From: an uncultured virus (IMG/VR IMGVR_UViG_3300017917_005385)
Lineage: Duplodnaviria > Heunggongvirae > Uroviricota > Caudoviricetes
Reading direction: 5' to 3' (one strand)
Virus record (IMG/VR): IMGVR_UViG_3300017917_005385
Length of the DNA stretch: 64,000 bases
A program made the translations under genes and the position numbers. The notes under the pieces were generated by a model that was given only the letters and a program-made list of their open reading frames with translations, did not search any database and was not told the origin of the DNA. This document shows, one piece after another, positions 9,530 through 47,238 of the stretch (position 1 is the first letter of the stretch; each line of letters starts with the position of its first letter).

Positions 9530-9675
9530 TATTTGGTGAATTAAAAAAGACACCGTATATTTGTATAACAAAACAAGAAAATAAAAAAAATTCATATAAA
9601 ATTTGGTAAATTTAAAACTTTTTACTAATTTTGTATAAAATAAATCAAAAGAGACAAAAACTTTTTAATATATAA
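9530..9675 (+). promoter_or_regulatory. tandem Bacteroidota-type promoters plus AATATATA motif upstream of tRNA array 1
   Basis: TTTG...TATATTTG (9532-9563), TTTG...TAATTTTG (9602-9633), TTTTTAATATATA; near copies at 33084-33260 and 43808-43880. Confidence 0.75.
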
Positions 9676-9679
9676 ACAA

Positions 9680-9778
9680 ATGAGAACATTTAATACACAT
9701 AAACATTTTAGTAAATCGAATAAGTGGTTTAGCAACCAGTTCGGTACTGAAAGTGTATTGCTCTCAAATAAGATGTAA
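9680..9778 (+). CDS. leader peptide 1 (His/Phe/Lys/Trp): MRTFNTHKHFSKSNKWFSNQFGTESVLLSNKM
   Basis: Short ORF between promoter and terminator; H/F/K/W codons match the downstream tRNAs. Confidence 0.8.
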   Translation: MRTFNTHKHFSKSNKWFSNQFGTESVLLSNKM

Positions 9779-10518: not shown

Positions 10519-10605
10519 GATTCTGTCGCTTAGTGGCTATAGCAACTGGCTTTTAACCAGTAGAGATAATGTTCTCAACCGTGGGTTCGAGTCCCACCAG
10601 GATCA
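10519..10605 (+). tRNA. tRNA-Lys(TTT), long variable arm
   Basis: actgg-ctTTTaa-ccagt; gaga/tctc variable stem. Confidence 0.8.
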
Positions 10606-10611
10606 CAAAAC

Positions 10612-10695
10612 ACTCCTGTCGCTCAGAGGCCGAGAGCAACTGGCTTTTAACCAGTAGACGAAAGTCCATCGTAGGTTCGAATCCTACCAGGGGTA
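10612..10695 (+). tRNA. tRNA-Lys(TTT), long variable arm
   Basis: actgg-ctTTTaa-ccagt; gac-gaaa-gtc variable stem. Confidence 0.8.
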
Positions 10696-10700
10696 CAAAT

Positions 10701-10785
10701 GACTCCGTTTCCGTAGAGGCCGAACGGTTCTGACTCTTAATCAGATGACGAAAGTCCACCGTGGGTTCGAATCCCACCGGGGTCA
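10701..10785 (+). tRNA. tRNA-Lys(CTT), long variable arm
   Basis: tctga-ctCTTaa-tcaga; gac-gaaa-gtc variable stem. Confidence 0.8.
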
Positions 10786-10877
10786 CAAATTGAAACTAAA
10801 AACTAAAAAGTAATTTTTTAGATAATTTTATAGTTTTTAGTTTTAATATATACATGAAATAAAATATATTTTTGTGT

Positions 10878-11420
10878 ATGAAAGAAGAAATAATTAAACT
10901 AATAAATGAGGGTTTTACATATGATGATATTACTAAAAAATTAGGTTGTTCTAAAAGTACAATATCTTATCATTGTAATAAATTAAATTTAAAAAGTAAA
11001 AGTAAAAATATAGATGTAAATAGTGAACTTGTAAATAAAATTAACGAATTGTATAAATGTGGAAATAGCTCTTATACAATATCAAAAATTTTAGGAATTT
11101 CAAAAAGTACAGCTCTTAAATATATTAGTAAAGAAAATATAAGGACTAAGAAAAAAACTAAAACTAAAAAGGATAAGTCCGAATACATAATGAGATGGAA
11201 GAAAAATCTTAAAAAGAGTTTAGTTGAATACAAAGGATCTAAATGTGAAATTTGTGGATATGATAGATGTATAGAGGCTTTAGAATTTCATCACTCTGAT
11301 CCAAGTAAAAAGGATTTTTCAATATCTACAAAATTATTTGGAATTGAAAAAATGAAAAAAGAAGTAGATAAATGTTTACTGTTATGTTCTAATTGCCATA
11401 GAGAAAAACATTATTTATAA
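10878..11420 (+). CDS. HNH homing endonuclease with N-terminal HTH repeats
   Basis: CEICGY...LEFHH...LLCSNCHREKH; two HTH-like segments; lies within the tRNA region. Confidence 0.85.
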   Translation: MKEEIIKLINEGFTYDDITKKLGCSKSTISYHCNKLNLKSKSKNIDVNSELVNKINELYKCGNSSYTISKILGISKSTALKYISKENIRTKKKTKTKKDKSEYIMRWKKNLKKSLVEYKGSKCEICGYDRCIEALEFHHSDPSKKDFSISTKLFGIEKMKKEVDKCLLLCSNCHREKHYL

Positions 11421-11428
11421 TAAAATTA

Positions 11429-11558
11429 GGGGATGTAGCTCAGTGGTAGAGTTTAAAATATCTCTTTTGAGGTTTTACCTTGAAAAAGTGTTGATTAAAA
11501 GAGTTACTTCGTTTGAATTGAAATCAAAAGGTCGTTGGTTCGAATCCAACCATCCCCG
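11429..11558 (+). ncRNA. tRNA-like RNA with a long stem inserted between the D arm and anticodon arm
   Basis: ggggatg/catcccc acceptor, canonical D and T arms, insert pairing ctcttttga/ttaaaagag followed by TTACTTCG. Confidence 0.6.
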
Positions 11559-11639
11559 CTAAAAAAATATTTGTAAATCTCAGAAAAAAGATTTACTTTT
11601 GTAGAAACAAAGAATAAAAAATTAATATATAATAAAGTT

Positions 11640-11717
11640 ATGAAAACAATTATGCTTACATCGAAGTCGTCAAGTAGTCGCTCGTCAAAAACGAGTGAGG
11701 TTCGATCGTATTCATAA
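11640..11717 (+). CDS. leader peptide 2 (Ser/Arg-CGN): MKTIMLTSKSSSSRSSKTSEVRSYS
   Basis: 10 of 25 codons are Ser; Arg codons CGC and CGA; followed by a terminator and Arg-ACG plus four Ser tRNAs. Confidence 0.85.
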   Translation: MKTIMLTSKSSSSRSSKTSEVRSYS

Positions 11718-23218: not shown

Positions 23219-24315
23219 TGAGTGACAATTTTTGTATAATAGTTTTTTCACATGCTGATAGTGAAGAAAAAGAAGAAATTCTTTATAATTCCTTATCATC
23301 AATAAAGCGCCTTAACATATCAATAATTCTAGCATCACATATTCCTGTGAGCGAAAGAAATCAAAACCTATGTGATTACTATGTTAAAGATAGTAACAAC
23401 CTTATATTAAGTGAGTCGGATATTATAAATAATCCGGTTAAAACATCAAAAGATATTTATAACACAACTGATTATTTTGGTGGATTAAAATTTGAGACAT
23501 CTGTTTTTAAAAAAACATATCAAGCTGGTGTTTTTAATCTTTATATAAGTGCTTTTAGATTTGCAAATAATATAGGTTTTAAAAATGCGATTTTATGGGA
23601 GTTTGATTATATACTTGGTGATAAATCAGTTTTTTTTATAAATGATTCTATTAACAGAATTTTATCCGAAGGAGTAGAATGTTTATACTTTAATAGTATT
23701 ATTAACATATTTAATAATGATATTATTCAAAAGTCTATAGATTGTTGTTATGCAATTCCTGCATTTTTTAATTTAGAGAAGTTTAACTCTATTTGTCCTA
23801 TCAATTTTATAAAAAGTGGAAAAGAGTATAATGAAATAAGTCGACTGATGATAATGGAACAATGGATAAAATCATATATTGTAGATAGATGTGAGAGAAA
23901 AATAGAATATCCATATGATCATTATAACAATTTATTACCGGATACTAAACTAGGACAAGTACACAGTCAAAGAGATAACTACCTTCTATCTGGTTTGAGA
24001 AGTGGTTTATATTTTAATGACGATAGAACATCTTTATGTTTACTTTTTGCAAATATGTCACTAAATCTACTTAGTTCAACTTTTCAGATATATCATGATG
24101 GTAATTTAATATTTGATATAAAAAGAGATTTATATCCAAAAAGTTGGTTTTATGACTTTTTAAATAGTGTAATTGTTGACTTATGTAAGTCAAAAAATGG
24201 TTGTCTTATTAAAGAAACTGTTGAAGATTTAAATACTAAAAAAGTTGATATTTTTGAGTATGTAATAAATGAAGAAAATATAGATTTTGTTTGTAAATTA
24301 AAAAAATTCTCTTAA
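23218..24315 (+). CDS. hypothetical protein related to the C-terminal domain of the previous gene
   Basis: Shared ILxSHI.V......LCDY...D.NN and xEyD motifs. Confidence 0.6.
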   Translation: MSDNFCIIVFSHADSEEKEEILYNSLSSIKRLNISIILASHIPVSERNQNLCDYYVKDSNNLILSESDIINNPVKTSKDIYNTTDYFGGLKFETSVFKKTYQAGVFNLYISAFRFANNIGFKNAILWEFDYILGDKSVFFINDSINRILSEGVECLYFNSIINIFNNDIIQKSIDCCYAIPAFFNLEKFNSICPINFIKSGKEYNEISRLMIMEQWIKSYIVDRCERKIEYPYDHYNNLLPDTKLGQVHSQRDNYLLSGLRSGLYFNDDRTSLCLLFANMSLNLLSSTFQIYHDGNLIFDIKRDLYPKSWFYDFLNSVIVDLCKSKNGCLIKETVEDLNTKKVDIFEYVINEENIDFVCKLKKFS

Positions 24316-24378
24316 ATTTGTATAATAATTGAAAAAGGGACTAAACTTTTTTAATATATACACATACAATAAAAACAT

Positions 24379-24450
24379 TGCGGGGTAGAGCAGAGGTAGC
24401 TCGCAAGGCTCATAACCTTGAGGTCGCAGGTTCGATTCCTGCCCCCGCTA
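24379..24450 (+). tRNA. tRNA-Met(CAT), initiator-like
   Basis: caagg-ctCATaa-ccttg; 1:72 mismatch; fMet-like D arm. Confidence 0.8.
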
Positions 24451-24536
24451 CTAAAAAAATAAAAAAGATTTGGTGAAATGAAAAAGTCTCCATATCTTTG
24501 TAAAAGAAATAAGAAAACAATATAAAACGAATTAAA

Positions 24537-24614
24537 ATGAACACTGTTATGAACATAGCGTATTATTATGAGGGGGAGCGTAGCTCAAACGTCAGACTAA
24601 TGTCTATGTCGTAA
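24537..24614 (+). CDS. leader peptide 3 (Tyr/Glu): MNTVMNIAYYYEGERSSNVRLMSMS
   Basis: TAT TAT TAT GAG GGG GAG; followed by a terminator and Glu/Tyr tRNAs. Confidence 0.85.
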   Translation: MNTVMNIAYYYEGERSSNVRLMSMS

Positions 24615-24636
24615 TGGTTTCATTATGATATTAACT

Positions 24637-24673
24637 AACCCAGTCTGACTTATCAGACTGGGTTTTTTGTTTT
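24637..24673 (+). terminator. attenuator terminator 3
   Basis: AACCCAGTCTGA/TCAGACTGGGTT plus U tract; leader GTCAGACT (24591-24598) complements AGTCTGAC. Confidence 0.9.
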
Positions 24674-24690
24674 AAAGTTCTTTGAAATTT

Positions 24691-24777
24691 GGGAGTATAA
24701 CGTCAGCGGCATGTTAGAGCCGCCCCTAAACAAATAGACGTATAGAGGTAACTTGTGTGCAAATCCAGGTGCTCCCA
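24691..24777 (+). ncRNA. atypical tRNA-like element, no assignable anticodon
   Basis: gggagta/tgctccc-A acceptor-like stem; cgtc/gacg and gcggc/gccgc helices; degenerate T arm. Confidence 0.4.
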
Positions 24778-24783
24778 CAAAAT

Positions 24784-24855
24784 GGTCCTGTCGACTAATG
24801 GTTAGGTCAACACCCTTTCAAGGTGTAGATGCGGGTTCGATCCCCGTCAGGACTA
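24784..24855 (+). tRNA. tRNA-Glu(TTC)
   Basis: acacc-ctTTCaa-ggtgt. Confidence 0.9.
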
Positions 24856-24863
24856 CAAAAAAT

Positions 24864-24943
24864 GCTACGGTATGCAAACCGGAATAAGCGACCAGACTTT
24901 CAATCTGGACATCGAAAGATGTGTGCGGGTTCCGTCCGTAGTA
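24864..24943 (+). tRNA. tRNA-Glu(TTC), long variable arm, truncated T-loop
   Basis: ccaga-ctTTCaa-tctgg; acatc-gaaa-gatgt. Confidence 0.6.
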
Positions 24944-24950
24944 CAAAAAT

Positions 24951-25033
24951 GGGAATGATGTGACACAGGTAGTCACGCTAGTCTGTAAAACTAGTGCCTT
25001 CGGGCGTTGCGAGTTCGAGTCTCGCCATTCCCA
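24951..25033 (+). tRNA. tRNA-Tyr(GTA)
   Basis: ctagt-ctGTAaa-actag; variable arm. Confidence 0.85.
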
Positions 25034-25040
25034 CAAACAA

Positions 25041-25124
25041 GGGAGAGCGCCAACGTTGGAGAGTTGGGCTGGTCTGTAAAATCAGTGGCTTACGCCTGAG
25101 TGGGTTCGATTCCCACCTCTCCCA
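25041..25124 (+). tRNA. tRNA-Tyr(GTA)
   Basis: ctggt-ctGTAaa-atcag; variable arm. Confidence 0.85.
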
Positions 25125-25130
25125 CAAAAT

Positions 25131-25203
25131 GATGCCATCGACTAAGGGCTTAGGTCGCCATCCTCTCAAGGTGGAAATACGGGTTCGAATCCCGTTGGCA
25201 TTA
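25131..25203 (+). tRNA. tRNA-Glu(CTC)
   Basis: ccatc-ctCTCaa-ggtgg. Confidence 0.87.
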
Positions 25204-25265
25204 CAAAAAAACTTGAAAAAGTTTGGTAATTAAAATTAAATTACTATCTTTGTAGAGTTGAAAAT

Positions 25266-25337
25266 GGTCCGTTAGTGAAGCGGTTAACACGCTACCCTTT
25301 CACGGTAGAGGCACGGGTTCGAACCCCGTACGGACTA
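25266..25337 (+). tRNA. tRNA-Glu(TTC), behind its own TTTG/TAnnTTTG promoter
   Basis: ctacc-ctTTCac-ggtag; promoter at 25222-25252. Confidence 0.9.
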
Positions 25338-25342
25338 CAAAT

Positions 25343-25457
25343 GACGCAAAAGGGTCAGGTGATGATATGATGGGTCTGCTCGAGATACTAGTTCAGCAGT
25401 TTAGTAAGACATCATATATGTAGCTTGGAGAGTTTGGTTCAATTCCGAACTGCGTCT
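25343..25457 (+). ncRNA. atypical tRNA-like element with extended central stem
   Basis: gacgca/tgcgtc closing stem, T arm tttgg-TTCAATT-ccgaa, atatgatg/catcatat helix. Confidence 0.45.
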
Positions 25458-25545
25458 CTAAAAAACAGATAACTCCGGTATGGTCTCAATCATTACTCAG
25501 AACCGGACTTAGGAGAGTTACAAGTTGAGATTCTGTTTTTTTTAT

Positions 25546-25628
25546 TGGTAGGTATGCAAGTGGTTAAAGCGATCGGTCTGTAAAACCGCCCTCTTCGGAG
25601 TTCGGGGGTTCAAATCCCTCCCTGCCAA
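25546..25628 (+). tRNA. tRNA-Tyr(GTA)
   Basis: cggt-ctGTAaa-accg; ctc-ttcg-gag variable arm. Confidence 0.85.
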
Positions 25629-25694
25629 CAAATAATAAAAAAAATTAAAAGGGAAGATAAAACTTTTTATATATACTTTAATATAATTAAAACG

Positions 25695-25775
25695 ATGAAA
25701 AATTTAACTAACATATCAACAGCAATAATCGAAGGCGGCGCGGGAGCGAATGTCACTGGCTGGTTTATGTTATAA
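25695..25775 (+). CDS. leader peptide 4 (Ile-ATA/Gly/Ala): MKNLTNISTAIIEGGAGANVTGWFML
   Basis: GCA ATA ATC GAA GGC GGC GCG GGA GCG; followed by a terminator and Ile/Gly/Ala tRNAs. Confidence 0.85.
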   Translation: MKNLTNISTAIIEGGAGANVTGWFML

Positions 25776-25799
25776 TCTTTCATCAAAAGAAGTAAACGG

Positions 25800-25836
25800 A
25801 ACCCAGTCAGTGAAAATTGACTGGGTTTTTTTATTT
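25800..25836 (+). terminator. attenuator terminator 4
   Basis: AACCCAGTCAGT-gaaa-ATTGACTGGGTT plus U tract; leader CACTGGCTGG (25754-25763) pairs with CCAGTCAGTG. Confidence 0.9.
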
Positions 25837-25917
25837 CGGCAGATACCGGTCCAATCTTATACATTGGATATCCGTAGTGGTAAGTTGAAAACGTGGGTTC
25901 GAATCCCACTCTGCCGA
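25837..25917 (+). tRNA. D-arm-less tRNA-like RNA with TAT (Ile) anticodon
   Basis: cggcaga/tctgccg; tccaat-ctTATac-attgga; canonical T arm; no D stem-loop. Confidence 0.6.
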
Positions 25918-25929
25918 CAAAAGATATAA

Positions 25930-26001
25930 GCGGGTATCGTATAAAGGCTATTACTCCAGCCTTCCAAGCTGGAGATGTCGGTTCGATTCCGACTACCCGC
26001 T
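25930..26001 (+). tRNA. tRNA-Gly(TCC)
   Basis: ccagc-ctTCCaa-gctgg; U73. Confidence 0.9.
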
Positions 26002-26045
26002 CAAATGAGAAAACATTAAAACCATCCCACCAGGATGTAAAACTC

Positions 26046-26119
26046 GGTCCTGTAGCTCAATTGGTCAGAGCAACTCGCTCATAACGAGAAGGTTGTCGGT
26101 TCAAGTCCGGCCAGGACCA
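26046..26119 (+). tRNA. tRNA with CAT anticodon, probably Ile2 (TilS substrate)
   Basis: ctcg-ctCATaa-cgag; C4:G69 and C5:G68 pairs; tilS in window; ATA codons in leader 4. Confidence 0.7.
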
Positions 26120-26124
26120 CAAAT

Positions 26125-26207
26125 GCGGGTGTCGTATAACGGTAGGTAATTCGACATTACACCTGGCTTCCAACCAGGAGACGAGGGTTCGACTCCCTTC
26201 ACCCGCT
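26125..26207 (+). tRNA. tRNA-Gly(TCC), expanded D-loop
   Basis: cctgg-ctTCCaa-ccagg; U73. Confidence 0.8.
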
Positions 26208-26214
26208 CAACTAT

Positions 26215-26290
26215 GGGGATGCATGTACCAAGGCTTTGGCGAGTCTGCTTTGCAAGCAAACTGTGGTGGGTTCGATTCCCATCATCTCCA
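26215..26290 (+). tRNA. tRNA-Ala(TGC)
   Basis: ttTGCaa loop; G3:U70. Confidence 0.78.
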
Positions 26291-26601
26291 CAAAATGAGT
26301 ATGACTATATTTAAATATTTAGTAGATGGTAAACTTTACTTCTTGTATAAAGGAGTTAAGGGTTATATTGCTATACCATTTGAACATAGTGGTAGCACAA
26401 TATCAAATCCCGACTTAAAAGAATTTGTACCAGTTGAATTTGGTAGTGGTTCTAATGGATTTGTATAAAAATAAAATTGAGTATGAAAAAGGTATTAACA
26501 GGCGAATTTGAATCAAGTAGAAAGAATTTAAGAAGAGATATAAATAAAAGTGTTTTGACTAAATTAATTAAAAGATTGAAAAGTAAGAGAAAATAAAATA
26601 A

Positions 26602-26676
26602 GCGAAAGTCGTATAGTGGCTATTATATCGCCTTGCCAAGGCGAGGACGGGAGTTCGATTCTCCTCTTTCGCTCCA
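26602..26676 (+). tRNA. tRNA-Gly(GCC), CCA encoded
   Basis: tcgcc-ttGCCaa-ggcga. Confidence 0.9.
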
Positions 26677-26717
26677 CCTGCCGGATGATCCACCGTTGTA
26701 TCACGGTGCCGGCTCCA

Positions 26718-26791
26718 GGGGGATTAGCTCAGCTGGCTAGAGCGTCTGCCTTGCACGCAGAAGGTCAACGGTTCGACTCCGTTATCCTCCA
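26718..26791 (+). tRNA. tRNA-Ala(TGC)
   Basis: tctgc-ctTGCac-gcaga; G3:U70. Confidence 0.92.
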
Positions 26792-26810
26792 CTAAAAAAA
26801 TTAAATTGTT

Positions 26811-27304
26811 ATGAAAAATCAAAGAACTAACAGCTTGGACGCCTAACCAAGAATGAACGAATCGAATTAAGAAAAAAAGAAATAGGTTCAAAATTAGATA
26901 GAAAACTACAAAAGTATTCTAATAGTTTTAATGAAATATTTACTTTCTTTTTGAAATCTTATCGTTCGGGCATTCTTACATTCTGTGGTAGTTCAGTAGA
27001 TATTGATTTTGATGTCTATGGTATAGAAGGAAAAATGACTTTTAGAAAATATGACAATGGTCAATATCAACAAGGTAAACAAATTATAACAAGACATCCT
27101 AATATAGTAAAAGGAGTTATAACTGGTAAAAAAAGTTGGGGCTTGTGGGTTAATCAGTGGTCTGATGGTATAGTAGAAGGAACATTCTCAAAAAGAGAAA
27201 TATTAGAACAATTTGAGAAATTAAATATTATAATACCAGAATCACTACTAAACGATTTTAATAATAGAATAATAAATAAAATGAAGAAAAAATATGGATG
27301 GTAA
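26811..27304 (+). CDS. hypothetical protein with an apparent frameshift near its start
   Basis: ATG ORF at 26811 stops at 26846; the -1 frame is open from 26831 to 27304. Confidence 0.45.
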
Positions 27305-33069: not shown

Positions 33070-33263
33070 AATATTTTAGAAAGTATTTGGTGAATTAAAA
33101 AACACACCGTATATTTGTAAAACAATTGAGAGAGGCAACGATTTAGATACAAATTTCAATTTTTTTTACAAATTTTAGAAAAAAATTAGGCAAACTTAAA
33201 ACTTTTATCTATATTTGTATAAAATAAGTCAAAAGGAACAAAAACTTTTTAATATATACAACA

Positions 33264-33374
33264 ATGAAAACAATGAATTTAAATATGAATCTTAATCTAA
33301 CAGTGGTGAATACGTTATGTATTAGACCAGTGGAGGGTTTTGCCATATCTAAAAATTTGTTTTCAGTCAACTAA
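33264..33374 (+). CDS. leader peptide 5: MKTMNLNMNLNLTVVNTLCIRPVEGFAISKNLFSVN
   Basis: Codons 3-21 use only T, M, N, L, V, C, I and R(AGA), the isotypes of the downstream array. Confidence 0.85.
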   Translation: MKTMNLNMNLNLTVVNTLCIRPVEGFAISKNLFSVN

Positions 33375-33582: not shown

Positions 33583-33667
33583 TGGTAGGTACCCGAGCGG
33601 TATTCAGGGACTAGTCTGATACACTAGGTGAGAAATCACGACATGGGTTCAAATCCCATCCTACCAA
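33583..33667 (+). tRNA. tRNA-Ile(GAT), long variable arm
   Basis: ctagt-ctGATac-actag; gtga/tcac variable stem. Confidence 0.78.
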
Positions 33668-33673
33668 CAACAT

Positions 33674-34006: not shown

Positions 34007-34094
34007 TGGCAGGTAGCCTAGTGGTTCAGGCACCAGACTGTTAATCTGAGAGAAGAAATTCTCAACGTGGGTTCGAATCCCACCCTGTCAGCCA
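34007..34094 (+). tRNA. tRNA-Asn(GTT), long variable arm, CCA encoded
   Basis: caga-ctGTTaa-tctg; gagaa-gaaa-ttctc. Confidence 0.78.
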
Positions 34095-34723: not shown

Positions 34724-34807
34724 GCCGATGTGGCTCAGTGGCGACAGCACTGGTTTTGTAAACCAGAGACGAATAGTCCAACGGGGGTTCGAGTCCCTCC
34801 ATCGGCT
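34724..34807 (+). tRNA. tRNA-Thr(TGT), long variable arm
   Basis: ctggt-ttTGTaa-accag; gac-gaata-gtc. Confidence 0.8.
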
Positions 34808-34822
34808 CAAAATAAATCACCT

Positions 34823-43750: not shown

Positions 43751-43885
43751 AATAATATTATTATCTTTGTACTCACAGAAGAAAAATAAATAAAAAATAA
43801 AAAAATATTTGACAAATTAAAACTTTGTTGTATATTTGTATAAAATAAGAACAAAAGGAACAAAAACTTTTTAATATATACTGAA

Positions 43886-43984
43886 ATGAAAAACTTAAAC
43901 TTAAATATTGTTAACCCGCAACCACAAGTTGTAATCGATCAGGATCCTGGTTCGAAAGGGGCTAACTATGTGGTTTTAAGTTAA
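43886..43984 (+). CDS. leader peptide 6 (Pro/Gln/Asp): MKNLNLNIVNPQPQVVIDQDPGSKGANYVVLS
   Basis: PQPQ...DQDP; followed by a terminator, Pro/Asp tRNAs and then the Gln tRNAs. Confidence 0.82.
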   Translation: MKNLNLNIVNPQPQVVIDQDPGSKGANYVVLS

Positions 43985-44731: not shown

Positions 44732-45313
44732 ATGAACTTGAAAGAGGAAATTAAAAATTGTTATAGTGTATCAGATTTTTGTAGATTATTAAATTTATCA
44801 CAAGGTGGTGGTGGATTTTCTAAAGCGAAAAAAATAATACAAGATAACAATCTGGATATATCACATTTTGATAAGGGTTACTTGAAAAGACAAAAGAATC
44901 CTAAAATTGAAAAGGTTTGTCCAGTTTGTGATAAGAAATTTGAAACGGTTACTTGGAGCAATAGAAAAGAAAAAGTTACTTGTTCTAAGTCGTGTGCTAA
45001 CTCTTACTTTAGAAGTGGTGTTGATAACCCAAACTGGAAAGAAGAATCATACAGAACTACTTGTTTTTATTATCACAAAAAAGAATGTATAATATGTGGT
45101 GAGGAAAAAATTGTAGAGGTTCATCATATGGATGAAAATCATATGAATAATAAACCCGAAAATTTAGTACCTTTGTGTCCTACTCATCATCAATATTGGC
45201 ACTCAAGATATAAAGAGGAAATAGAAGATAAAATATATAACTACATAAAAGAATTTAAAATGAGAACAACAACACAATACCAGCAACAACAACAAATTAA
45301 TCCAACGGATTGA
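44732..45313 (+). CDS. HNH homing endonuclease whose C-terminus reads in frame through leader peptide 7
   Basis: CPVC, CSKSC, CIICG...VHH.D.N..NN..ENL..LCP.HH. Confidence 0.85.
   Translation: MNLKEEIKNCYSVSDFCRLLNLSQGGGGFSKAKKIIQDNNLDISHFDKGYLKRQKNPKIEKVCPVCDKKFETVTWSNRKEKVTCSKSCANSYFRSGVDNPNWKEESYRTTCFYYHKKECIICGEEKIVEVHHMDENHMNNKPENLVPLCPTHHQYWHSRYKEEIEDKIYNYIKEFKMRTTTQYQQQQQINPTD
45260..45313 (+). CDS. leader peptide 7 (Gln): MRTTTQYQQQQQINPTD
   Basis: Own ATG after AATATATA (45232-45239); 6 Gln codons; terminator, three tRNA-Gln and glnS downstream. Confidence 0.85.
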   Translation: MRTTTQYQQQQQINPTD

Positions 45314-45338: not shown

Positions 45339-45375
45339 AAACCCGAATCAATTCAAATTGGTTCGGGTTTTTTTT
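45339..45375 (+). terminator. attenuator terminator 7
   Basis: AAACCCGAATCAAT/ATTGGTTCGGGTTT plus U tract; ATTGAT..CGG around the leader stop complements the 5' arm. Confidence 0.88.
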
Positions 45376-45633: not shown

Positions 45634-47238
45634 ATGAATTTCATTGAAGAAAAAATATTAGATAAAGGTAATCTTGATAAATTAACTTTAAGATTCCCAC
45701 CAGAGCCAAATGGTTATTTACATATTGGTCACGCTAAATCCATTATCTTAAATTTTGGATTGGCTGAAAAATATAATAGACCTTGTAACTTGAGATTTGA
45801 TGATACAAATCCAACTACTGAAGATACACATTTTGTTGAATCTATAATAAAAGATATAGAATGGTTAGGCTACAAGCCTGCTAATATTTTCTATACATCT
45901 GATTACTTTGAATTTATTTACAAATGTGCTGTTACTTTAATTAAGAAAGGTCTAGCTTATGTTGATGATTCAACATCTGAAGAAATTGCTAACTTAAAAG
46001 GAACACCCACAGTTGCTGGTAAAGATTCACCATACAAGTCAAGAACTATTGAAGAAAACTTAGATCTATTTAATAGAATGAGATTAGGTGAATTTGTTGA
46101 AGGTTCTAAAATTCTTAGAGCTAACATTGATATGGCTTCTCCTAATATGATTTTAAGAGATCCTGTTATTTATAGAATAATATCTAAGTCACATCATAGA
46201 ACTGGTGATACTTGGAAGATTTATCCAATGTATGATTTTGCTCATCCTTTAAGTGATTATAACGAAGGTATTACTGATTCTTTATGTACTTTAGAATTTG
46301 AAGTTCATAGACCTTTATATATGTGGGTCTTAGAAAATTGTGATTTAGAAAATCCTTTACCAGAAGAAACTGAGTTTGCTCGTTTGAACATTGACTATAC
46401 AGTTATGTCAAAGAGAAAGTTAAAGAGATTAGTTGAAGAATCTTATGTTGATGGTTGGGATGATCCAAGAATGCCTACTATCTCTGGATTAAGAAGAAGA
46501 GGTTATACACCAAGTGCTATTAAAGATTTTTGTGATAGAATTTCTGTTACTAGAAAAGATGGTGTTGTTTCTTATTCTTTACTTGAAGAATGTCTAAGAA
46601 CCGAATTGAATAAGACTGCTCCAAGATTAATGGGTGTCATGGATCCTGTTAAGTTAGTTGTTACTAATTTTGAAGGTGAAGGATATTGTGAAATTGACAA
46701 TAATCCAGAAGATGAAAATGCTGGTAAAAGAAAAGTTTCTTATTGTAATGAATTTTGGATTGAAAAAGAAGATTTCAGAGAAGAAGCCAATAACAAATAT
46801 CACAGATTAAAGTTAGGTGGTGAAGTTAGATTAAAAGGATTGTTTATAGTTAAAGCCAATGAAATAATTAAAGATGAAAACGGTGAAATTATAGAAATCA
46901 GATGTACTTATGACCACGATGCTTGGATTGGTGTTACTGAAAAGAGGGTTAAAGGTACTATTCACTGGGTTTCTGTTAACCACGGAGTTAAGATGAAAGT
47001 AAACGATTATGATAGATTATTTATCAATAGTTCACCAGACAAAGGAGATGAAGATTTTACAACTCATGTCAATCCTAACTCATTAGTTATTAATGATAAT
47101 GCTATCTTTGAGGAAAATGTAAAAGATTGTAAAGTAGGTGTGCCTGTTCAAATGATGAGAAAAGGTTACTATGTTTTAGATAAAGATGGTAAGTCTTGGA
47201 ACAGAACTGTAAGTTTGAAAGAAGGATGGGTAGGTTAA
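45634..47238 (+). CDS. glnS: glutamine--tRNA ligase
   Basis: RFPPEPNGYLHIGHAK, IYPMYDFAH, SLCTLEF, MSKRKL, GWDDPRMPT, KGTIHWVS. Confidence 0.96.
   Translation: MNFIEEKILDKGNLDKLTLRFPPEPNGYLHIGHAKSIILNFGLAEKYNRPCNLRFDDTNPTTEDTHFVESIIKDIEWLGYKPANIFYTSDYFEFIYKCAVTLIKKGLAYVDDSTSEEIANLKGTPTVAGKDSPYKSRTIEENLDLFNRMRLGEFVEGSKILRANIDMASPNMILRDPVIYRIISKSHHRTGDTWKIYPMYDFAHPLSDYNEGITDSLCTLEFEVHRPLYMWVLENCDLENPLPEETEFARLNIDYTVMSKRKLKRLVEESYVDGWDDPRMPTISGLRRRGYTPSAIKDFCDRISVTRKDGVVSYSLLEECLRTELNKTAPRLMGVMDPVKLVVTNFEGEGYCEIDNNPEDENAGKRKVSYCNEFWIEKEDFREEANNKYHRLKLGGEVRLKGLFIVKANEIIKDENGEIIEIRCTYDHDAWIGVTEKRVKGTIHWVSVNHGVKMKVNDYDRLFINSSPDKGDEDFTTHVNPNSLVINDNAIFEENVKDCKVGVPVQMMRKGYYVLDKDGKSWNRTVSLKEGWVG

Follow-up and report, generated by a model that had tools for sequence, protein, structure and literature searches.

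A probable leader-peptide attenuator ahead of Glu and Tyr tRNA genes in an uncultured phage

The stretch of DNA analysed here, called the window, comprises 64,000 nucleotides from an uncultured virus of the Caudoviricetes (IMG/VR record IMGVR_UViG_3300017917_005385) and holds a group of Glu and Tyr tRNA genes that we refer to as module 3. The group is headed by a leader-terminator element with a length of about 170 nt. In this element a promoter is followed by an A-rich leader of ~30 nt, a short open reading frame (ORF), a 22-nt spacer, an intrinsic terminator and a tRNA-like RNA, behind which come five tRNA genes, an internal promoter, a tRNA-Glu (TTC), an odd tRNA-like stretch and a tRNA-Tyr (GTA). 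From the terminator up to position 25629 the module contains only tRNA and tRNA-like genes. We consider it probable that a ribosome-mediated attenuator of the trp/his/phe type acts on the tRNA genes of module 3, together with a conserved internal promoter that would give a basal supply. The anatomy, the geometry, the conservation and the codon match of its parts are all read from the sequence itself.

An attenuator of this type calls for a short promoter-proximal ORF, and the frame at 24537-24614, behind the promoter at 24469-24500, is of this kind; it is also the sole ORF of at least 20 amino acids that lies wholly between promoter and terminator. Cognate codons are clustered in it, as three TAT codons (24561-24569) and two GAG codons (24570-72 and 24576-78) provide five of the six codons of the block YYYEGE; the stop codon is at 24612-24614. 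Among random 24-residue peptides of phage composition, a six-codon window with at least five Tyr or Glu residues is found in 0.17% and YYY in 0.28%. A spacer of 12 nt (CGT AGC TCA AAC) separates the last GAG from the octamer GTCAGACT, a perfect Watson-Crick complement of AGTCTGAC (24642-24649), which is made of the terminator 5' arm and the first loop base. When the region between codon 4 and the terminator was shuffled, an 8-nt complement of this length arose in 25 of 5000 cases. The first-pass annotation of this DNA had described the three TAT and two GAG codons and, 12 nt farther on, an octamer complementary to the terminator arm, and all of these are found exactly where it placed them.

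Leader ORF and prospective target genes are separated by the intrinsic terminator; its T-tract TTTTTTGTTTT spans 24663-24673 and the hairpin has an energy of -19.1 kcal/mol. If the terminator 3' arm is left out, the RNA 24575-24652 folds into the antiterminator (-27.2 kcal/mol, z -5.2), in which GUCAGACU pairs with AGUCUGAC around the small hairpin holding the stop codon. The 5' strand of that hairpin can also pair with the start of the leader in an alternative 1:2 fold. The fold of the full leader (-53.4 kcal/mol, z -6.3) consists of this 1:2 helix plus the terminator; in it the 5' half of the ORF, AUG and UAU codons included, is paired to 24598-24623. Module 3 therewith has an alternative pairing that a ribosome stalled at the regulatory codons would set free.

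Table 1. Features of module 3, its upstream unit and the seven leader-terminator-tRNA modules of the window
Feature	Position	Strand	Details
Leader promoter, Bacteroidota-type	24469..24500	+	TTTG, 20 nt, TATCTTTG
Leader ORF	24537..24614	+	25 codons + stop; MNTVMNIAYYYEGERSSNVRLMSMS, then stop
Leader codons	24537..24614	+	ATG AAC ACT GTT ATG AAC ATA GCG TAT TAT TAT GAG GGG GAG CGT AGC TCA AAC GTC AGA CTA ATG TCT ATG TCG TAA
Regulatory codons	24561..24578	+	TAT TAT TAT GAG GGG GAG; proposed stalling site
Antiterminator 5' strand	24591..24598	+	GTCAGACT; inside ORF, codons 19-21; pairs with 24642-24649
Small hairpin around stop codon	24606..24631	+	24606-24616 with 24621-24631; enclosed by antiterminator helix
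Intrinsic terminator	24637..24673	+	12-bp stem 24637-24648 with 24653-24664, 6 G-C pairs, loop CTTA
Conserved tRNA-like RNA	24690..24778	+	~90 nt; acceptor-like 7-bp stem, T-arm-like hairpin; first product behind terminator
tRNA genes proposed to be attenuator-gated	24784..25204	+	Glu-TTC 24784-24856, Glu-TTC-like 24864-24944, Tyr-GTA 24951-25034
The same, continued		+	Tyr-GTA 25041-25125, Glu-CTC 25131-25204
Internal promoter (candidate), Bacteroidota-type	25222..25252	+	TTTG, 19 nt, TATCTTTG; exact match to TTTG-N19-TAnnTTTG
Distal genes within reach of internal promoter	25266..25629	+	Glu-TTC 25266-25338, Tyr-GTA 25546-25629
Distal odd stretches		+	tRNA-like stretch 25341-25460; weak hairpin + T8 run 25461-25543
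Upstream unit	24290..24451	+	Promoter motif 24290-24320, near-copy of AAACTTTTTAATATATA 24344-24360, tRNA-Met (CAT) 24379-24451
M1	leader 9680-9778, module to 9838		..FNTHKHFSKSNKWF..; His-like, Phe, His, Phe, Trp x2, Lys x4
M2	leader 11640-11717, module to 11773		..SKSSSSRSS..; Arg, Ser x4
M3 (module 3)	leader 24537-24614		..AYYYEGE..; Glu x4, Tyr x3
M4	leader 25695-25775, module to 25828		..AIIEGGAGA..; Ile-like, Gly, Met, Ala, Gly, Ala
M5	leader 33264-33374, module to 33430		..MNLNMNLNLTVVNTL..; Asn, Ile, Arg, Leu, Val, Thr, Met
M6	leader 43886-43984, module to 44037		..NPQPQVVIDQDP..; Pro, Asp x4, Pro
M7	leader 45260-45313, terminator 45339-45370		..QYQQQQQ..; Gln x3

Relatives of the element were collected with the terminator core as search pattern (CCAGTCTGA, 3-9 nt, AGACTGG, N, TTTT). 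Among viral contigs five loci matched, three with Glu/Tyr tRNAs behind the match and two at the ends of unrelated protein genes. Metagenome contigs yielded 106 matches in 97 loci, 31 with tRNAs within 1 kb and 75 without; all 31 tRNA-bearing matches have Glu or Tyr as their first tRNAs and carry a short ORF ending ~20-30 nt ahead of the terminator. The resulting family, which includes the window, L001 and L002, comprises 37 loci with 31 distinct leader-terminator sequences that form nine groups at 80% identity, the minimum pairwise identity being 42%. An open frame of 22-30 codons starting from an invariant ATG is present in 31/31 distinct sequences; the alternative frames run for no more than 19 and 13 codons, and length differences among leaders are multiples of three. 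All 31 have Tyr codons ahead of the antiterminator strand and 30 have Glu codons there, and the distance of the last Tyr or Glu codon to that strand is 12 nt in 25/31 (range 6-15 nt). The blocks formed by these codons vary (AYYYEGE, SYESYYEEG, GYTGYEGAYSE, GYEGYESYYS, TYYYEVES, GYAYEAG). Composition is kept, order is not and the frame is preserved, which we take as the signature of an attenuator leader and not of a functional peptide or an untranslated RNA.

The choice of codons is likewise biased. The family leaders favour GAG, the rarer Glu codon in phage ORFs: GAG is used 54 times and GAA 13 times, versus 172 and 651 times in the long ORFs of the window (Fisher 5e-23), and for Tyr, TAT is used 89 times and TAC twice, versus 501 and 143 (Fisher 3e-7), with both Fisher values inflated by the relatedness of the sequences. 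TAT would be the Tyr codon that the GUA anticodon reads by wobble. In L077/L079 one terminator, with no second leader or terminator, is followed by Tyr, Glu, (Glu), Ile-TAT, Gly and Ala genes. The leader of these loci (..IEAIGYAYEAG.., encoded by ATA GAA GCN ATA GGN TAT GCN TAT GAG GCG GGG) suggests that it has taken up the Ile(ATA), Ala and Gly codons of its merged tRNA cluster.

Pairing is conserved along with coding content. Across the 31 sequences 94.4% of cells in the antiterminator helix are paired, the antiterminator strand lying outside the search pattern; at pair 70-140, G-C is replaced by A-U in L004 and L020 and by G-U in four other sequences. For the tested structures, which derive from the window's own fold, the two helices of the antiterminator analysis are together 86.5% paired, and sliding the partner by 1-3 columns lowers this to 26-44%. 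The combination of 1:2 helix and terminator is 84.6% paired, with 12 pairs changed on both sides, versus 31-46% in slid versions, and its covariation score was reached in 0/500 shuffles.

The match between leader and tRNA cluster extends beyond module 3. An unbiased scan of the window revealed exactly seven terminators with a tRNA gene within 330 nt, each with a short ORF ending just upstream (M1 to M7). In the six modules besides module 3, the leader abounds in residues for which its cluster has tRNAs. The true pairing of leaders with clusters matches 61 (strict) or 74 (relaxed tRNA calls) of 186 residues, the highest of 5040 permutations. A complement of at least 6 nt to the terminator 5' arm occurs in 7/7 modules and lies wholly inside the ORF in 6/7, the Fisher combined p over the seven being 3e-5. 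Homologues of all seven modules, with diverged leaders, are found in LR745206.1 (L001, L116-L118), where 55/61 Rfam tRNA hits stand behind a leader and terminator; the leaderless ones are Met-type, a Cys, one uncalled hit and one minus-strand hit (L119, L120, L121). Over all loci examined, 63/64 sites with a terminator followed by a tRNA have a short ORF, the exception being at a locus edge. In 44 distinct leaders, 299/1098 residues match the cluster, while shuffles average 157 (sd 14) and none of 20000 reached 299. Every sequence-level prediction that follows from reading module 3 as a leader-peptide attenuator, the interpretation suggested at first pass, appears to hold in the window and across the 31 distinct relatives.

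Both promoters of module 3 have the form TTTG, 17-21 nt, TAnnTTTG, which we take to be the Bacteroidota promoter consensus. The window contains 20 matches to this motif versus 3.67 expected, a number reached in 0/100 shuffles; a scan of 24000-27000 for sigma-70-type promoters gave 8 against 8.4 expected and hence no enrichment. In the family, the motif lies no more than 110 nt upstream of the leader in 19/37 loci, and between the terminator and a later Glu or Tyr tRNA in 20/37. Thirteen of these 20 loci have at least one called tRNA ahead of the internal promoter, as the window does, and two more family loci end just past the internal motif. In module 3 itself, five tRNA genes without a promoter motif of their own lie between terminator and internal promoter. 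The internal promoter at 25222-25252 had been postulated at first pass; it matches the consensus exactly and belongs to the motif class enriched in the window. The accompanying suggestion, that the distal genes may be expressed independently of the attenuator, fits the recurrence of the motif in 20/37 family loci. The promoter-driven pair of Glu-TTC and Tyr-GTA appears to be the stable core of the family, with a gated set ahead of it that varies from none to five genes; since this set can be absent, the switch in some relatives could only add to a basal level.

A further element recurs near these units. AAACTTTTTAATATATA or close copies of it are found at 24344-24360, 9658-9674, 33242-33258, 43864-43880 and 25659-25675; three copies are exact, and 12 matches with at most three mismatches compare with 4.8 expected. 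Its copies precede four leader ATGs and the leaderless tRNA-Met by 5-25 nt, and it could be a phage-specific promoter or 5'-UTR (untranslated region) element.

With regard to the genes, the tRNA list of the first-pass annotation (three Glu-TTC, one Glu-CTC, three Tyr-GTA) could be largely retained. ARAGORN at default settings and Rfam both report Glu-TTC at 24784 and 25266, Glu-CTC at 25131 and Tyr-GTA at 24951, 25041 and 25546; the third Glu-TTC is called only at a relaxed ARAGORN threshold. This Glu-TTC-like stretch at 24864-24944 (81 nt, with a long variable arm) is not scored by Rfam. The isoacceptors are divergent, with 73% mean column identity among the four Glu genes and 68% among the three Tyr genes, the Tyr alignment including one L001 sequence. 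The tRNA-like RNA at 24690-24778 occurs in seven relatives, directly behind the terminator and with 19 consensus pairs, and neither ARAGORN nor Rfam calls it a tRNA.

From these parts we infer leader translation, ribosome stalling, a kinetic choice between helices and a physiological trigger, which could be put together as follows. Transcription would start at the promoter at 24469-24500, and a ribosome would translate the 25-codon leader. With ample Tyr-tRNA and Glu-tRNA, it would run to the stop codon and occupy ~24597-24626, beside or on GUCAGACU and on the RNA that the antiterminator helix must enclose, so that the terminator hairpin (24637-24664) would form and RNA polymerase would stop. 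Slow decoding of UAU or GAG would instead stall the ribosome with its A site at 24561-24578, where it would cover ~24546-24590, mask the 5' competitor and leave GUCAGACU, 12 nt downstream, free. GUCAGACU would then pair with AGUCUGAC (24642-24649) as an 8-bp helix before the terminator 3' arm is transcribed, and polymerase would read through into Glu-TTC, Glu-TTC-like, Tyr, Tyr and Glu-CTC, and then into the distal genes. Independently of the switch, the internal promoter would give a basal supply of the distal Glu-TTC and Tyr-GTA. The outcome would be a feedback loop that tops up phage Tyr and Glu tRNAs when the pool seen by the ribosome is short. Amino-acid shortage, depletion of host tRNA by a defence nuclease or take-over by the phage could each act as the trigger; a link to a host effector that cleaves tRNA-Tyr is speculation.

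Several observations weigh against this mechanism or narrow what supports it. Taken as a whole, the module 3 leader contains Tyr and Glu in only 5/24 residues (binomial P = 0.15), and only the local run of these residues and its conservation carry weight. Within the family, the L020/L038 leader has one Tyr and three Glu codons among many Asn, Ile and Asp codons, with two of the three Glu codons ahead of the antiterminator strand, and the L103 leader has no Glu codon. The family sequences are related, and codon and pair counts are therefore not independent events; the terminator, 97.6% paired in the family, has a core that is invariant by ascertainment, being the search pattern. Run on the family, RNAalifold returns just the terminator and the stop-codon hairpin, and neither the antiterminator nor the 1:2 helix; the latter, which would enforce termination on an untranslated leader, is part of the window's minimum-energy fold and 73-82% paired in the family with double changes. 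Equilibrium folds of the complete RNA keep the terminator in all seven ribosome-mask conditions, so the switch must be kinetic and read-through needs kinetic trapping; equilibrium folds of classical attenuators likewise keep the terminator. For RNA that lacks the 3' arm and carries no ribosome, the antiterminator has the lowest energy, being slightly more stable than the 1:2 fold, and the default state of the untranslated RNA is therefore ambiguous. The switch would also presuppose tight coupling of transcription and translation in the host. Finally, 7/37 loci have no ARAGORN-called tRNA between terminator and internal promoter. The gap between the two is only ~20 nt in L039, L059 and L095, so that the switch there gates nothing exclusively; in L070 an uncalled Tyr-like element lies between terminator and promoter.

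The hairpin might instead be a plain, unconditional terminator, ending the tRNA-Met unit or insulating units from each other, with the downstream tRNAs transcribed from internal promoters only and the ORF incidental or coding for a micropeptide. The promoter motif behind the terminator in 20/37 loci, the seven loci without a called tRNA in between, the ~20-nt gaps and the persistence of the terminator in equilibrium folds all suit this explanation. It has to contend, however, with the promoter that separates tRNA-Met from the leader, in the window as in 19/37 loci, and makes the terminator the end point of a transcript begun just ahead of the ORF, and with the five window tRNA genes ahead of the internal promoter that have no promoter motif. 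It also leaves unexplained the conserved antiterminator, the Tyr/Glu content, the GAG/TAT bias and the leader-cluster match that ranks first among 5040, and a functional micropeptide does not agree with a peptide order that is not conserved. We therefore regard a plain terminator as very unlikely.

Translation of the leader might also act by another route, by shielding the RNA from Rho or an RNase or by controlling the processing or stability of the tRNA precursor. The ambiguity of the untranslated state would be compatible with this, as would the facts that thermodynamics alone do not favour the antiterminator and that the AUG is paired in the full-length fold. Such a route, though, has no need of a strong intrinsic terminator together with a conserved 7-8-nt complement at 12 nt (25/31), nor of the complement to the terminator 5' arm that recurs in every window module and, in six of seven, wholly inside the ORF; we judge it highly unlikely. 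The remaining alternative dispenses with translation. T-box elements also sense tRNA status, and a direct sensor of this kind, in which uncharged tRNA-Tyr or tRNA-Glu pairs with UAU or GAG 'specifier' codons and stabilises the antiterminator, would likewise place a terminator/antiterminator pair downstream of codons that match the regulated tRNAs. Yet there is no RF00230 match at E up to 10 in 24360-25700, nor one at gathering score in the window. An untranslated RNA would moreover have no need of a conserved frame with an invariant ATG, a stop codon and indels in multiples of three, and the varying order of several codons for at least two amino acids fits serial decoding and not one specifier loop. 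A direct sensor thus seems to us very unlikely.

Beyond the attenuator itself, one may ask what seven such switches would do together. Tentatively, and with a good deal of doubt, they could form a codon-class-resolved monitor of decoding speed, with the Tyr/Glu module as one channel of an on-demand circuit for counter-defence and tRNA homeostasis. Every leader would test the codons that belong to its own tRNA set, the tRNAs covering nearly all amino acids, and a reserve of structurally divergent phage isoacceptors would be released only when that part of the host pool fails, be it because a host anticodon nuclease has cleaved it or because the phage has shut off host tRNA. Internal promoters would supply basal copies, and the rare GAG and wobble-read TAT would tune module 3 to the most fragile decoding events.

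If the attenuator reading of module 3 is true, the ribosome's own decoding speed would set the supply of the molecules that limit decoding. It would account for how a giant phage carrying 50-70 tRNA genes can refrain from making them all constantly, and would connect phage tRNA arsenals with host tRNA-targeting defences in a concrete and testable way. Natural variants, such as merged leaders, promoter bypasses and free-standing versus fused leader ORFs, ease the design of experiments. Conservation of the element extends over at least nine groups of sequences from uncultured phages, and the element might also be used in Bacteroidota as a portable, codon-specific decoding sensor.

The window as a whole has a G+C content of ~30% and 47 (ARAGORN) to 49 (Rfam) tRNA genes, all on the + strand and clustered between protein genes. 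The latter encode a collagen-like tail fibre, a sigma factor, a Thg1-like tRNA-His guanylyltransferase, a GluRS-like protein, GlnRS, a ClpB-like ATPase and HNH endonucleases. Among deposited genomes, the closest are LR745206.1 (634,780 bp) and LR756502.1 (642,428 bp), both unannotated and recorded as 'uncultured phage'. The unit directly upstream of module 3 (24290..24451) has no leader ORF or terminator of its own, and a tRNA-Met precedes the leader in most family loci. In the window this tRNA-Met (24379-24451) appears to be initiator-like and has promoters but no leader, presumably because an elongating ribosome cannot read the supply of initiator. No relatives of the upstream 365-aa protein were found among viral contigs. 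With the Thg1-like gene as anchor 11 loci were retrieved, and tRNA modules were seen only at L008 (on the same contig as L006) and L016; synteny with Thg1 is therefore not conserved.

Other tRNA-like RNAs of the window are unusual in size or structure. The Lys, Ile, Asn, Thr and Glu genes include unusually long ones of 81-88 nt with an extra arm, and stretches that are long or scored poorly or not at all lie at 10519-10786, 33583-33668, 34007-34094, 34724-34808, 24864-24944 and 25341-25460. Just ahead of the last tRNA-Tyr of module 3, the weak hairpin with its T8 run (25461-25543) might serve as another, leaky stop within the distal unit. At 10872-11559 an HNH endonuclease gene with helix-turn-helix (HTH) domains is directly followed by a tRNA-like gene whose halves (11429-11451 and ~11527-11559) are split by an insert, and which may represent a tRNA with an intron or a disrupted one. 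In the relatives L063 and L098, a candidate suppressor tRNA for amber codons (anticodon CTA) is encoded between the distal Glu and Tyr genes (positions 1741-1810 of the reoriented locus, reverse strand), a hint that stop codons may be recoded in part of the phage clade. The Gln module differs in the setting of its leader: MRTTTQYQQQQQINPTD makes up the in-frame tail of an HNH endonuclease ORF (44732-45313), and the homologous leader of LR745206.1, MTTTQQIQQQQINQTD, is a free-standing 15-codon ORF (L118:1639-1722). The three tRNA-Gln genes of M7 run directly into the GlnRS gene (45634-47238), which may be under the same Gln attenuator. No promoter motif was found between modules 6 and 7, and these two switches may therefore act in series.

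How module 3 relates to described systems can be judged from several comparisons. Among the curated Rfam leader and attenuator families none reaches gathering score in the window, where only tRNA does (49 matches). RF04312, the 'trpB ncRNA motif', aligns over 24546-24674 at 32.6 bits, below its gathering score of 59 (E = 0.025 for a search of 1.3 kb), and we treat the element as a non-member; what the two share, a hairpin, a spacer and a terminator hairpin with U-tract, is generic architecture. A literature search over full texts found no paper that describes leader-peptide attenuation of tRNA genes. In the main text of PMC7162821 'attenuat' and 'leader' occur 0 times; its supplementary tables, and those of other papers, might list these tRNA genes. 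Phage tRNAs have been discussed as a counter to host tRNA-targeting defences (PMC10264068, PMC11464382), an idea that, in the parts of these papers considered, gives a reason for many divergent phage tRNA copies such as those seen here. As far as those parts go, the two papers concern the tRNAs themselves, without a leader-peptide switch controlling their transcription.

Mechanistically, the closest parallels lie in bacteria. T-box riboswitches (RF00230) bind tRNA directly and have no ORF. Like them, module 3 would read tRNA status and switch between terminator and antiterminator; unlike them, it has a conserved reading frame and no T-box match at E up to 10. In Escherichia coli, attenuation at the pheM leader controls pheST, which encodes phenylalanyl-tRNA synthetase. 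Here too a component of the translation apparatus would be placed under a leader peptide that senses charged tRNA, and the Gln module of the window even runs into GlnRS, but the product of pheM-pheST is a synthetase, whereas the products here are tRNAs and no protein gene follows in module 3. The leader-peptide attenuators trpL, hisL, pheL, leuL, thrL and ilvL control amino-acid biosynthetic operons of enterobacteria. With trpL-type leaders, module 3 shares a promoter-proximal short ORF with clustered cognate codons, an intrinsic terminator, an upstream strand that can pair with the terminator 5' arm and, possibly, a further 5' strand that could sequester that strand; as in thrL and ilvL the leader is multivalent, in this case for Tyr and Glu. 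Known targets of attenuators are genes for amino-acid biosynthesis, transport or aminoacyl-tRNA synthetases, a range to which module 3, with only tRNA and tRNA-like genes up to 25629, does not belong. This non-classical target class is the novel aspect and does not contradict an attenuation mechanism; to our knowledge, leader-peptide attenuation has been described only for amino-acid supply genes and a few synthetases. Unlike the trpL type, then, module 3 has tRNA genes and not biosynthetic enzymes as its targets, so that its output would feed back on the very quantity sensed, it resides in a giant phage with Bacteroidota-type promoters, and its internal promoter would split the operon into a gated and a basal part. 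As far as we have found, the mechanism is that of the textbook and the target class, tRNA genes, is new.

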